NCBI RefSeq assembly: GCF_018977255.1
Contig: NW_024704742.1
Location: forward strand, 91,886,001 to 91,950,000
Direction: 5' to 3'
Length of the DNA: 64,000 nt
DNA from: Callorhinchus milii
Lineage: Eukaryota
Shown here: positions 29,593-43,817 of the stretch, in pieces
Layout of the letters: each line of letters begins with the position of its first letter
Numbering within the stretch: the stretch's first letter is position 1
Program-made: the position numbers and the translations under genes
The notes under the pieces: model-generated
What the model saw: only the letters and a program-made list of their open reading frames with translations
Database searches by the model: none
Told to the model about the DNA's origin: nothing

Positions 29593-29749
29593 TCAGTCAG
29601 TTGATACGTCATCTATTTCTTGCCTTTTGCTGAGCTTTCGCCATTTCTTCTTCTTCCTATATACTCCTGATTTCCTGAAATCTTCATTATATGCTTCTGA
29701 CCGCTCTGTCTTCTTTAAAGATTTTCTCTTTACAATTTTCTTGTAATAG
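29593..29749 (-). CDS. IZUMO4: IZUMO4-like, terminal coding exon 7 (basic cytoplasmic tail)
   Basis: Acceptor ttctttgttctcaatcag|, phase 2. Encodes YYKKIVKRKSLKKTERSEAYNEDFRKSGVYRKKKKWRKLSKRQEIDDVSTD*. Basic residues follow the TM directly (positive-inside rule), and AATAAA lies ~105 nt after the stop. Confidence 0.72.
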
Positions 29750-29869
29750 CTGATTGAGAACAAAGAACCACACAAAAAATGTTTACAGCTGATTTTCTGT
29801 CAAACTTGAAGTGATCTTGATCAATATAAAAATAATGTTCTGGACTTAAGAGGGTGTAAGTTTATGTTT

Positions 29870-30270
29870 TTGGTATATGTTTATATCGCACCTTTTCATG
29901 TCATATTGCTTTCAAGTCCTTTGCTTAGGAGCCTGAGCTAGGTGGAGGTGGGGGGAGAGAAGGGGGTGATCAAAAACATGTTCAAAAAGGTAAGTCTTAA
30001 GGTGGGCTTTAAAGGTGGGGAGAGAGTGAGGTGGGGAGGCTCTGAGATGGAATTCCACAGTGTGGACAGAATGGCTAAAAGATTGTCTGCCGATGGGGAA
30101 ACAGATTGGACAAAGGACATAAAACAGTCTGGTGTTTGGATGTATGGTGAGACCGTGGAGGGATCATGAATTTGATCCGTAAGGGAATGGGAAGCCAGTG
30201 GAGCCGAGTAAAGAAGGGGATGGGGGCTCTCGAATTGTCAAAAAAATTTGGCAGATTCTGGACTCTCCAA
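29870..30270 (-). mobile_element. Old L2 LINE fragment (IZUMO4-like intron 6)
   Basis: RLHWLPIPLRIKF and LWNSI motifs. Confidence 0.7.
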
Positions 30271-31835
30271 CATGTCATTAATGTGGAGTAAATCTACTCC
30301 CAGGTGGAATTGCTGAAAAAATAGTCCTCACACGCATTGTTTCACAGTAGTTGGTCAGAACAGCTTCTGAATGGGAAAAGCACTCAGGAGGTAAAAGGGA
30401 TTTCACCTACAACATTCTGGCACCATGTGACAAGTTTTGTAAGGCTCTGAATTGCAAGAACATATTTTGAAGAACTGACTTGTCAGAACAGATTGGTTTG
30501 CCTTTGTTTTCTCTGAATTAGTGCTAGCGTGAAGAGCTGCACGTGGACCAAGAAGGCACAGCTCCAAGGTCAGACTAACTGCAGACAAGAGGCGATGAGT
30601 CAGGTCTTATGATTTTTGTGTTTTATTTGGATCCATGGCCAAAAGAAACACAGCAACACAGTGTGATGAAAATCTAGTGCACTGTAGCTGTCAACTCAAG
30701 TGCAACTCGCATTTATAAACTGCCCTTCATGTCAGTAGCAGAGCTTGACGTCGAGCAAGGAAGAGAGGGGAGGTGGCTATAGGCGGGGTCAAAGCAAAAT
30801 GTCTTCAGATATAATCTGATGCTGGAGTCTGCAGGAGGCCGAAGTCAGTTGAGCACAGGGAGCGAGTAGAGGAGTGGGGTGTAAGCAGGTCGGAGAGGTA
30901 GAGAAGTGCTAGGACATGTAATAATTTATACTTGAGAATGAAGATCACCAATATAGAGGATAATCGATAGAGAATTCATCTATTGTTTTTTATGCAAGGC
31001 AGTGACTAGATTTTGTTTTCCTATTTTTAAAAATGTTTTTACCCCATTTCTCAATAAAGGCTTTGTCTTTCATCGCATTTTATTTCTTTATTGATTCTGT
31101 GCTGTTATGAAGAAACATTGGCACAGTGGTATCATTTTAGTCCAACAGTGCCTCAGCACTAACTTAACCAGAGTTTTAAAGCAACAATGAAAACTGGAGT
31201 AATTAAAGTGATACTCTATCTCTGCCCACTCACTGGTGGATAACATGATATTGACTCATGATGACCTGTTTCAGGGGCTAGAAATAGAAATCCAGCACTG
31301 TAAATAACAGTAGCTATTAGTGTGATTAGCTACTGATTATAATCTTGTGGACCACCTCCCGCCGTCTCTTCTCTCCCACCCCCACCCCACCTCAAAAAAA
31401 CCCTAAGAAAATAACTTCTGTCCTTTTCAGGAACCCAGAAGAATTTTTACCAGCCTCAATTGTTTTCACGTTTCATGTGAAATTGCCAAATGCCTTCATG
31501 TGAATAGCAACAGACACAAAAGATAAAATAACTGAACGTCATCAGTCTAGTCAAATTGTGGAAGCCATCATTTATGATCTCTTTGTCACACGCATGTAAA
31601 TACTCCCAATTCAAGTTTCCTTTCATGTTTCATTTGTACTGACTCATAATGGTTTGGTAGTTACTTGCAGCAACATGTTCAGGATTACACTCCCATTAAA
31701 CAGCTTTGCTTTAGTATGACACAAGTTATAACATAAAGATCTGTAAAGATCCAATGGAAAATGGTACATAAAATCACTAGAAATTATAAACATGGTAACA
31801 TTAAGCAAAAACATTTGATATGTTTTAGTTTAATG

Positions 31836-32975
31836 CACCTATGCTATTCGCCTCAACTGTTCCTTGTGGTAGCAAGTTCCACATCCCCACCACTCTCTGG
31901 GTAAAGAAGTTTCTTCTGACTTCCCTATTTGATTAATTGTGACTATTTTATATTTATGGCCCCTACGTTTGGTCTCCCCCACAAGTGGAAACATCTTCTC
32001 TATGTCTACCCTATCAAAACCTTTCATCATTTTAAATCTATAAAATTTAATTATAACATTTCACTTATCCATAGTGAAATGCATTTGGCAATTAAATGCG
32101 CATTCAGCAAGTTTATTAATGTCTTTTTGTAATTTGTTGCAGTCCTCCTCATTATTAATTACACCGCCCAATTTGGTGTTGTCTACAAATTTTGAAATTG
32201 TACTTTTGATCCCCGAGTCCAAATTGTGAACAACTGTGGTCCCAATACCGATCCCTGTGGAAAACCACTTCCCACCCTCTGCCAATTTGAGTAGCCTTCC
32301 TTACCCCTACTCTCTGTTTTCTGTCTCGTAGCCATCTTGCTATCCATTCTGCTACTTTTCCCCTGACTCCACACGCTCTGATCTTATTCATTTGTTTATT
32401 ATGAATACCTTATCAAACACCTTTTGGAAATCCAAATATATTACATCTACCGCATTACCCTTGTCTACTCTTTCTGTTACCTCTTCAAAGAATTCAATGA
32501 GGTTAGTCAAGCATGACCTTCCTTTTTGAAATCCGTGCTTTCAAATCCGTATTGTTTATTATATTTTCGTTTTCTAGATGTTTTTCCATTACCTCCTTCA
32601 GTAAGGATTCCATTATTTTTCCTAACACCTCTGTTAAGCTGACACATCTAGAGTTCCCTGGGCTTGTTCTATCTCCCTTTTTAAATATAGGTATAACATT
32701 AGCTATCCTCCAGTCCCTTGGTACTACTCCCTTTTCTAATGAATTATTATATATAATATATAAATGTAATAGTTCCTCTGCTATCTCTTGTCTAGATTCT
32801 TTTAATATATGCAGACCCACACCATCCGGACCAGGATTTTTATCCTCATTGAGTTTAGTTAGTTTATCGATTATCTCCCCCATTTTTATCTTAAATGTAC
32901 TTATATCATTTTTGATCTTTTCTTCTACTGTCATGTCCAACTGATCCATCTCCCTGGTAAATACTGAGGCAAAGT
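31836..32975 (-). mobile_element. CR1 LINE RT fragment
   Basis: YFASVFT, PGPDG, WRIANVIPIFKKG, GFPQGSVLGP, SKFVDNTKLGG motifs. Confidence 0.9.
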
Positions 32976-32989
32976 AAAGGGGCAATTGC

Positions 32990-41890: not shown

Positions 41891-42000
41891 CTCTCCTTGA
41901 AGAATGAGCGGCACTATGTAGATGATCGGGTTGAAATAATAACATTCAATTCATAGCGAATTGCCCTAAGATCCTCAGTAATGTTATATAGTTTACTTAC

Positions 42001-42072
42001 AGTTTTTAATAGATGTATCGACTTTTTCAACCTCAAATCTCTTTATTCGTTGTAAAGCTTTAGGAAAGTAGC
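42001..42072 (-). CDS. IZUMO4: IZUMO4-like, coding exon 3
   Basis: Acceptor aatttcag|, donor T|GTAAGT, 72 nt, phase 1-1. Encodes (G)YFPKALQRIKRFEVEKVDTSIKN(S), similar to recalled IZUMO4 GYFPNELRNIFREQVHLIQNAIIES. Confidence 0.88.
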
Positions 42073-43160
42073 CTGAAATTTTATTGAAGATAATATAAGT
42101 AATATCAGTATCATTTACTAATTTGCTAAAATCATTAATCTGAAGCAAAACTAATTATTACTTCACTTTATCTTGTGGAGCAAAGTATTGAGACCAAACA
42201 AAACTTTAACAACCATATGGACCACCACAAGGCGAGAAATAAGAGTTGAAGGAAGGTAGTCCTTGTGGTAATTTTGAGGGATCTAATCCCCCTCCACCCA
42301 TGGAGAGGGGCTTTCCTCTAGTGGGCCACTCTCTTGTGCCTCCGAGTAGATAGTCTCTGACAGAAAGCAGTGCACGGTATGGGAAGTCTCAAAAAGGAAG
42401 GGTGAGCTAGTTTAGAAAAATAATAATAATCCTTGCATTTGATGCCTTATGACATCTTCGAGACGTCTCAAAGCACTTCACAGAATACTGTAAAGTGAAT
42501 TGACAATATTTTGAGGGCAAATTTGAATTTTTTTAATGACATCAACCAAAGAGACACATTTTTTTCATGAAAAGGCACTGGACTCATTTATTTCGGAAGG
42601 AACGAGAGTCAAAAAATATGACAATTGTCAGTATAATTTTGAATATGAGTGAAACGAGCAAGTTTATCCCGTTCCATTGGTTTTGCTTGAGTTCCTGTGA
42701 CATTTCATAGAAGCAACCACCTTTGAGCTTCTTTAATCAAGTGCTCAATGGATTTCCCACACCAAATAGCTGTTTTACTTGCCCAATTTATGATAATCTG
42801 TCTAAATTAAAATATAGTAGACACCTTCACTTTTTTTAAATTGATTCCAATCTTCCAGTCTGTGTCACACTACTAGCAGAGGCTGTGCATTTATGGAAGT
42901 GACATAGGGCAAATAAGAAGGTAATATTATTGAACGACTAGATCTGATCAGTTAGGGGACACCAAGGGAATTGAATTCATACTGTTTGATTTCCTACTCT
43001 CAATTGCTCACTGATTTAAGGTCAAAGGTACTTCCTATGCTTTTGCCTCATGGTGTGATCGTCAGCTTGGTATATCCTAATCTTCTTGCACTTTGAAATC
43101 AAGTTACCATATTCTTATAGTTAAAAAGCTAAAGCATTTGAAACAGAATCGCTTCATTAC

Positions 43161-43241
43161 CAACACTTGTGAAGGACAGCTTGTATTCTTTATCCATCTG
43201 TTTGTAAACATCTTGTGCAATGGATATGAGTTCATTTTTGG
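43161..43241 (-). CDS. IZUMO4: IZUMO4-like, coding exon 2
   Basis: Acceptor tttcctacag|, donor G|GTAATG, 81 nt, phase 1-1. Encodes (P)KNELISIAQDVYKQMDKEYKLSFTSV(G), similar to recalled IZUMO4 REKLDQVATAVYQMMDQLYQGKMYFPG. Confidence 0.88.
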
Positions 43242-43597
43242 CTGTAGGAAATACATTTTTTTAATAGATAAAGAACAGAAACACAGAATTTAGTTTTAAA
43301 TCGTAAACATGGATCACTGAGTAATTTACTGATGAAATGTCATCATTCTTTCATAGCAGCGAATACTTTAACTCTAGTGTTACTTCAATGTCACACAGTG
43401 TTGGTGGATATAGAAGGTGATCTGCCTTAAAACATTTCTTGTGTTCAAGGTGTCTGCCTTTGTTTTGTATCTAGTACTTCAAGGCGTGTCCGACCATGAA
43501 ATAATTTCCAATTTCGCTTTGTAGTCATTTACAAAATATAACAGAGCCCCGATGGCATTATCCCCAATACCAGGGCAAGTCATGCCCCAATACTCAC

Positions 43598-43817
43598 GCA
43601 CTGTCACTTTGGTATCTTTGATCTCATCAACCCATTTATCAATGAATTTCTGGCAGTAAACCATGTCTCCCACCCAGGAAGATCGCCACCATAGATGATT
43701 CCTGTAATAAGTGAATTTATCGTCGAAATCTTTCTCGCAGTGTAAGCAACAACGGGTAAGATTGGGCAAGGTGATCATAGTAAGGAAAATGGGAAAGCGC
43801 GCGAGCAGTAGCTCCAT
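43598..43817 (-). CDS. IZUMO4: IZUMO4-like, coding exon 1 (signal peptide + N-terminal Izumo domain)
   Basis: ATG at 43817 in context TCC-ATG-G. Encodes MELLLARFPIFLTMITLPNLTRCCLHCEKDFDDKFTYYRNHLWWRSSWVGDMVYCQKFIDKWVDEIKDTKVTV, matching recalled mammalian IZUMO4 GCLHCHSNFSKKFSFYRHHVNFKSWWVGD. Donor C|GTGAGT, phase 1, 220 nt. An in-frame ATG 7 codons upstream (43838) is an alternative start. Confidence 0.88.

Follow-up and report, generated by a model that had tools for sequence, protein, structure and literature searches.

An intact single-copy IZUMO4-like gene of Callorhinchus milii with a predicted membrane anchor

The stretch of DNA analysed here, called the window throughout, comprises 64,000 nucleotides of the 991.5-Mb Callorhinchus milii genome (C1:91886001-91950000) and carries a gene of the Izumo (IST) family at C1:91.916-91.930 Mb. 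We consider it likely that this is an intact, single-copy member of the cartilaginous-fish group that databases name 'IZUMO4-like', that the membrane-anchored form is the older one, and that tetrapod IZUMO4 became secreted later. The 251-residue product is a predicted type I membrane protein with an Izumo domain and without an immunoglobulin (Ig) domain. By sequence the gene is IZUMO4-like, and its one-to-one orthology with mammalian IZUMO4 is putative.

An initial annotation, made from the letters alone, had proposed seven minus-strand exons totalling 756 nucleotides (nt) and encoding 251 amino acids (aa). We recovered all of them, with AG/GT borders and fitting phases. In window positions, the parts of the gene are as follows.

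43817-43598, minus strand: exon 1, 220 nt, with the ATG at 43815-43817, a hydrophobic signal-type N-terminus, C23, the first CXXC (C24, C27), C55 and the first Izumo helices; donor GT
43241-43161, minus strand: exon 2, 81 nt, phase 1, a helix of the four-helix bundle; AG/GT borders
42072-42001, minus strand: exon 3, 72 nt, phase 1, starting with the family-conserved YFPKALQRIK; AG/GT borders
38685-38659, minus strand: exon 4, a 27-nt micro-exon, phase 1, with C129 and C133 (CxxxC); AG/GT borders
37785-37711, minus strand: exon 5, 75 nt, phase 1, with the second CXXC (C143, C146), C153 and C157, the beta-hairpin hinge
34343-34220, minus strand: exon 6, 124 nt, phase 1 in and 2 out, the stalk with N164 and N173 and the transmembrane (TM) helix A180-F200
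29749-29593, minus strand: coding part of exon 7, 157 nt including the stop TGA at 29595-29593, with YY after the TM, a Lys/Arg-rich tail and the C-terminal ...EIDDVSTD; AG acceptor
43838-43836, minus strand: possible earlier start, an ATG in frame with the modelled one and seven codons before it (open frame MQQRKWS)
29359-29488, minus strand: two AATAAA hexamers, candidate poly(A) signals by pattern, 105 and 229 nt past the stop

The spliced frame of 251 codons closes on a stop, every internal border reads AG...GT, and the phases run 1,1,1,1,1,2. The gene spans ~14 kb, and no stop, frameshift or broken splice site occurs in its seven exons. Were translation to start at the earlier in-frame ATG, the N-terminus would gain 7 aa. 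Long open frames of repeat-like character, to which Pfam gives no match, occur in the introns as well, one of them at 35608-36399.

The product opens with a signal-type N-terminus (residues 1-22), whose hydrophobic stretch 3-21 (Kyte-Doolittle value, KD, 1.46) aligns with the N-termini of relatives, and continues through an Izumo domain (~23-158), a stalk (159-179), a TM (180-202) and a tail (203-251). The Izumo domain contains two CXXC motifs and four more conserved cysteines. The eight cysteines named in the initial annotation are at the positions claimed, and all eight (C24/C27, C129, C133, C143/C146, C153, C157) align with those of full-length relatives; C23 and C55 bring the total to ten. 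C55 is kept in every fish-type protein, including those of sturgeon and coelacanth, and is not present in tetrapod IZUMO4; C23, which forms a CC pair, is limited to cartilaginous fishes. Judging from these residues, an extra disulfide or a free thiol is possible in the fish-type form. The 21-residue stalk carries both of the sequons described earlier, N164 (NNS) and N173 (NES), and the proposed TM includes the most hydrophobic segment of the protein (residues 180-198, mean KD 2.33). Because just 22 residues separate the last hinge cysteine from the TM, there is no space for an Ig domain, whose absence had likewise been noted. The tail is rich in Lys and Arg and closes on a conserved ST[DE] end.

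Exon 1 alone, searched by phmmer against 1.84 billion representative proteins, gave 28 matches at E <= 0.001 (best 5.9e-25), 25 of which carry Pfam IZUMO at E <= 0.01. The other three are two short fragments and an odd 1212-aa entry (P0003), which was dropped as an apparent artefact made of 15 short stretches with unrelated Pfam families. Six of the nine clusters looked up among these matches are named IZUMO4 or IZUMO4-like, and none of the 28 is named IZUMO3. Likewise, a profile search returned 197 matches, with no IZUMO1, 2 or 3 by name among the 120 listed. In the opposite direction, tblastn with 11 proteins of other species matched exons 1, 2, 3 and 5 in the right order and on the right strand, with E down to 1e-26. 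Exon 1 was matched by skate, ray, shark, sturgeon, coelacanth, caecilian, echidna and mammal queries (E 1e-26 to 1e-8), exon 2 by five fish proteins (6e-7 to 2e-3), exon 3 by skate, ray, catshark and coelacanth proteins (3e-7 to 3e-5), and exon 5 by skate and catshark proteins (2e-6 to 2e-5). Exons 4, 6 and 7 had no match from these proteins and were matched by their own model only. Weak tblastn matches at 26.3-26.6 kb of the window were set aside as chance, because their frames are full of stops.

A profile hidden Markov model (HMM) of six fish homologues, in which the window had no part, gives the spliced product 278 bits, and an HMM of tetrapod IZUMO4 gives exons 1-5 108 bits. Exon 1 bears the tetrapod-IZUMO4 signature CLHC...KF.(F/Y)YR...W.GD. 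PF15005 matches nine of nine fish-type relatives at E <= 0.01, five of them over the curated cut-off (25 bits). The locus is single-copy in the genome: window exon 1 and caecilian IZUMO4 each match just this place, exon 1 being the sole match of the caecilian protein (E 2.3e-7). The collections searched returned no protein from this genome; the best identity in them is 56% for exon 1 and 48% for the whole product. Exon 1 gave chance matches alone against PDB sequences (E >= 1.2) and none in the 'longer' lengths of a word-indexed protein collection, a result that is uninformative since the same collection matched later. Together the results support reading the locus as a genuine, unbroken gene of the IZUMO family, and every one of its nearest sequence relatives is IZUMO4 or IZUMO4-like. 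The closest are skate and shark proteins, in keeping with the cartilaginous-fish origin that had been guessed from the letters.

These relatives, named IZUMO4-like, come from Leucoraja erinacea (P0049), Narcine bancroftii (P0050), Scyliorhinus torazame (XP_072373724/5), S. canicula (P0046) and, as a UniRef entry, Pristiophorus japonicus (P0051). Their length class (239-263 aa) is that of the window product, and their parts follow one another as they do there: a putative signal peptide, the Izumo domain, a short stalk with predicted N-glycosylation, the TM, YY or Y(F/Y), a basic tail and ST[DE]. The skate protein is 48% identical to the window product over 221 columns; the window gene is from another lineage, however, and the tail sequences are weakly alike. 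Coelacanth IZUMO4 (XP_006008299.2, 274 aa) and sterlet LOC131737028 (217 aa) also join an IZUMO4-type Izumo domain to a TM (KD 2.82 and 2.37) and a charged tail, although their tails are acidic where that of the window product is basic, and their branches are long (1.4-1.55 changes per column). Tetrapod IZUMO4 is the best match outside fishes (32-44% identity over exon 1) and has the same eight cysteines and, as its isoforms imply, the same exon borders. It differs in having no TM, in carrying past the hinge a soluble extension without counterpart in the window, and in being described as secreted.

We compared hydropathy across seven fish-type proteins (RefSeq/UniRef models of the five species just listed, sterlet and coelacanth) and four tetrapod proteins (caecilian, echidna and two placental IZUMO4 proteins). 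The 19-aa KD maximum is 2.33 in the window product, 2.37-3.25 in 7/7 fish-type proteins and <=0.95 in 4/4 tetrapod proteins. The exon 6 helix of the window product lines up with the TM of the seven fish-type proteins. A TM-grade segment in all of the former and in none (0/4) of the latter fits the earlier suggestion that the anchor is ancestral, and by this comparison of sequences the predicted membrane anchor is well supported as the older state of this branch. The anchored form itself is not new: TM-bearing models named 'izumo sperm-egg fusion protein 4(-like)' are on record for at least seven other species. Since the shark, skate, ray, sturgeon and coelacanth models share the TM and tail, this kind of gene is already in databases.

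The likeness to elasmobranchs extends through the last two exons. The product aligns end to end with the elasmobranch models, through the C-terminal ST[DE]-stop. All five share this ending with it, as well as the two aromatic residues just past the TM and the KKW(K/R)K run. For exons 6-7 alone the statistical support is modest: the fish-type HMM gives them 24.6 bits, the tetrapod HMM -1.8 bits. The tail taken by itself lends weak support, as its alignment scores with the five elasmobranchs were reached by 16-97 of 1000 composition-preserving shuffles; the same comparison gave no excess likeness to sturgeon or coelacanth tails. A tetrapod-type C-terminal exon was not detected in the window (best tblastn E 0.7, on the wrong strand). 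Among sequencing runs, exon 7 with the 3' end was listed for four runs of unspecified kind, which are genome-sized and probably DNA, and was next to absent from eight runs guessed to be RNA.

Isoform records of other species bear on the exon borders. One dolphin IZUMO4 isoform (P0021) is without exactly the nine residues aligned to the 27-nt exon 4, which suggests that mammals have the same micro-exon. Likewise, the sterlet model is without the residues aligned to exon 2, one electric-ray isoform (P0050) is without those aligned to exon 5, and mammalian read-through isoforms diverge at the ends of window exons 1 and 2. Because these records lose or change sequence exactly at window exon ends, they indirectly imply that the gene and IZUMO4 would share their exon borders.

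The initial annotation had expected a four-helix bundle, and this fold was found by proxy. AlphaFold2 was run on the skate protein named above with an alignment of 15 rows, including four window exons. The model (mean pLDDT 74.5, pTM 0.55) contains four helices (33-42, 51-70, 77-96, 104-133), and a beta-hairpin (strands 138-144 and 149-155), followed by a disordered stalk and then a long TM helix; pLDDT is 81-95 from residue 31 to residue 160. In a Foldseek search of the PDB with this model, ranks 1-14 (13 listed) are all IZUMO1 (E 2.9e-4 to 9.5e-3), followed by SPACA6 (E 0.31) and TMEM95 (E 0.98). IZUMO1 (PDB 5B5K, 5JK9, 5F4E) has the four-helix bundle and beta-hairpin hinge of the skate model at 12-18% identity; it differs by an Ig-like domain between hinge and TM, where the window product has its 22 residues. 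Look-alikes of the skate ectodomain in the ESM Atlas scored 0.75-0.83, below the informative level.

The other IST members are all described as single-pass membrane proteins (PMC9482655, PMC12615630), so that secreted IZUMO4 is the odd one out. In our preferred account, in which the anchored form came first, the anchor would be older in this branch, and an exchange of 3' exons would have turned tetrapod IZUMO4 into a secreted protein. By analogy with the family, the protein would be made in spermatids and located in the acrosomal or sperm surface membrane, with the four-helix bundle facing the lumen or the outside. Its part may be an accessory one, in the forming acrosome or in complexes for gamete adhesion, rather than that of the essential egg-binding ligand.

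Several points weigh against this account. Single-exon frames of the window, compared with Pfam, gave no match at E <= 1 (0/5). Exons 6-7 draw no tblastn match from other species' proteins, their likeness to relatives lies mostly in hydrophobic/basic composition and a short terminal motif, and the joins from exon 5 to 6 to 7 are putative, drawn by comparing the window with models predicted in other species. As to function, mouse Izumo4 knock-out males are fertile (PMC12917576), and the name therefore does not imply a role in fertilisation. Finally, the position of the gene argues against simple orthology with IZUMO4.

In human, IZUMO4 stands in the same order of genes as in pig (MOB3A, AP3D1, DOT1L). 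Pig IZUMO4 is listed between AP3D1 and MOB3A, beside DOT1L (PMC9375371), and the window gene is elsewhere. The cluster with these neighbours lies on contig 21 (DOT1 at C21:6.479-6.483 Mb, AP3D1 at C21:6.425-6.428 Mb, a MOB3-type gene at C21:6.317-6.318 Mb), and the 160 kb of C21:6318001-6478000 hold no IZUMO4-like match (best tblastn E 0.4). The direct neighbour of the window gene is instead a RAD23 paralogue.

51339-51461 and 58466-58711, minus strand: XPC-binding exon and UBA exon of a RAD23-type gene, directly upstream of the window gene and on the same strand (57.5 bits; Pfam UBA 5.4e-14)

A second MOB3-type gene at C1:91.41-91.43 Mb, 0.48 Mb from the window gene, adjoins C9orf72 (C1:91.33 Mb). 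The same contig carries PLAA (88.63 Mb) and CAAP1 (88.65 Mb), 3.3 Mb away, as well as ELP1 (85.59 Mb) and an NFI gene. PLAA, CAAP1 and ELP1 are genes of human chromosome 9, and human RAD23B is at 9q31. At human 9p21.2, MOB3B adjoins C9orf72 (PMC9257137), and human IZUMO3 is on 9p21.3 (PMC4941330). The genome has three RAD23 loci, the other two of which (C21:4.73 Mb, C29:1.96 Mb) lie ~10-30 kb from a calreticulin gene. Contigs 21, 1, 5 and 29 show repeated occurrences of MOB3-type, NFI, RAD23 and calreticulin-family genes (C21:6.20-6.48, C1:77-92, C5:1.6-25 Mb). This recurrence looks like a duplicated-block pattern, and we take the blocks to resemble the duplicated blocks of human chromosomes 1, 9 and 19. 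The window gene is thus outside the MOB3/AP3D1/DOT1L block and in a paralogous block resembling human chromosome 9, which leaves the IZUMO4 orthology proposed in the initial annotation unproven as a one-to-one relation.

The tree does not decide the matter. It comprised 12 rows, leaving out sawshark (its N-terminal half is mispredicted), fragments and further isoforms, and as it has no outgroup it is unrooted and cannot tell orthology from ancient paralogy. The fish-type and tetrapod-type proteins are split with 100/100 support by a very long branch (1.71 + 0.95 changes per column). The gene tree is nevertheless compatible with the species tree, since a grouping of coelacanth with tetrapods is not rejected (approximately unbiased test, p-AU 0.40); the division of bony vertebrates from cartilaginous fishes is already a split in it.

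Because the gene is in a chromosome-9-like block, and TM-bearing, Ig-less IZUMO3 is at human 9p21.3, it could be a duplication twin of IZUMO4. We regard it as possible, although unlikely, that the gene is an ancient paralogue of this kind, probably left by whole-genome duplication, and not the one-to-one orthologue of IZUMO4. In that case it would correspond by position to IZUMO3, or represent a copy that tetrapods have lost, and would look like IZUMO4 through slow evolution. The neighbourhood speaks for this, with the IZUMO4 neighbours on contig 21 next to no IZUMO4-like match and the window gene beside a RAD23-type gene and near a MOB3-type/C9orf72 pair; so does the very long branch between the two groups. 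IZUMO3 likewise combines an Izumo domain with a type I membrane anchor and is without an Ig domain (PMC9482655); its likeness to the window gene lies in this described architecture and, tentatively, in position. Searches return IZUMO4 and, among the matches listed, never IZUMO3; exon 1 carries the tetrapod IZUMO4 N-terminal signature; and the borders, including that of the micro-exon, coincide with those implied by mammalian IZUMO4 isoforms. No species among the matches listed has both a fish-type and a tetrapod-type gene, and paralogy needs several reciprocal losses. In addition, a published analysis groups Izumo3 with Izumo2 and Izumo1 and places Izumo4 as the most distant member (PMC4807442). 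Should the gene be a paralogue after all, its TM would say nothing direct about when IZUMO4 lost its anchor.

A bolder version of this history is, in our estimate, doubtful. In it, IZUMO3 (9p21, near MOB3B) and IZUMO4 (19p13.3, beside MOB3A) would be whole-genome-duplication twins of one anchored ancestor near MOB3. Cartilaginous fishes would keep the MOB3B-side copy alone, slowly evolving and still IZUMO4-like; in tetrapods that copy would have changed fast and turned into IZUMO3, and the MOB3A-side copy would have shed the anchor to become secreted IZUMO4. If this were true, shark 'IZUMO4-like' genes would be misnamed, and the published grouping of Izumo3 with Izumo1 and Izumo2 would be a rate artefact.

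We find it very unlikely that exons 6 and 7 lie outside the main product, with the gene encoding a soluble protein that ends after exon 5 or in another last exon and the TM being a chance frame. Such an ending would agree with the sequencing runs listed for exon 7 and the 3' end, none of which is on record as RNA, with the low complexity of the TM and basic tail and their weakness in BLAST, and with coelacanth and electric-ray records that include isoforms with other ends or skipped exons. It sits badly with the AG/GT borders and matching phases, with the HMM score of 24.6 bits, with the YY, KKW(K/R)K and ST[DE]-stop common to five elasmobranch models, and with the window showing no detectable tetrapod-type C-terminal exon (best E 0.7, wrong strand). 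We give hardly any credence to the idea of a silent relic, a pseudogene of intact appearance that is no longer expressed: the collections returned no protein from this genome (best exon-1 identity 56%) and no RNA holder is among the sequencing runs listed, but seven exons over 14 kb without a stop, frameshift or broken splice site, all eight family cysteines and the 48% identity to the skate protein over 221 columns speak against it.

A genome scan with the Pfam IZUMO model gave four weak matches the size of an exon, all of them under the cut-off and away from the window gene; the 3-kb loci round them hold hinge-like exons only, too little for rooting the tree. At C5:52376313-52376393 (plus strand), a 135-aa open frame has the hinge-like pattern C-AEY-CG...WC..C, in which CAEYCG is the same as in window exon 4. 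Its Pfam IZUMO score of 17.4 bits is under the cut-off and its spacing is what we take to be IZUMO1-like; judging by this pattern, it is probably an exon of another Izumo-family gene. Short hinge-like patterns similar to this frame occur at C7:24.126 Mb and C11:14.576 Mb.

Elsewhere in the window are fragments of retrotransposons without long terminal repeats (non-LTR), with Pfam RVT_1 up to 5e-23 and Exo_endo_phos_2 at 2.7e-5.

15452-15784, minus strand: non-LTR retrotransposon fragment
16779-17042, minus strand: non-LTR retrotransposon fragment
48417-49102, plus strand: non-LTR retrotransposon fragment
54392-54907, minus strand: non-LTR retrotransposon fragment

A coproporphyrinogen-oxidase match at 11939-12157 (plus strand, E 7e-4) is under the cut-off and was rejected as chance or a small fragment, because the real gene is on contig 4. 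A single N stands at window position 62426.

It is documented that IZUMO4 is without a TM or secreted (PMC4807442, PMC8830517, PMC9482655, PMC12917576). IST members occur in sharks (PMC12615630) and Izumo4 in fish, the latter stated with no mention of an anchor (PMC4807442). Literature on IZUMO4 in fish or with a transmembrane segment yielded no description of an anchored IZUMO4 in the portions of text covered. The finding is a modest refinement of a small family, the mammalian member of which is dispensable for fertility, and not a new kind of system. The papers cited have IZUMO4 as the sole unanchored Izumo, whereas the anchored form is present, as database models and this gene, in every non-tetrapod lineage compared. 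If the genes are orthologous, the anchor would have been lost after the coelacanth lineage branched off and before the amphibians did, which would give a concrete example of a membrane protein of sperm that turned into a secreted one. The place of the gene in a paralogous block, in turn, offers a testable history for IZUMO3 and IZUMO4.

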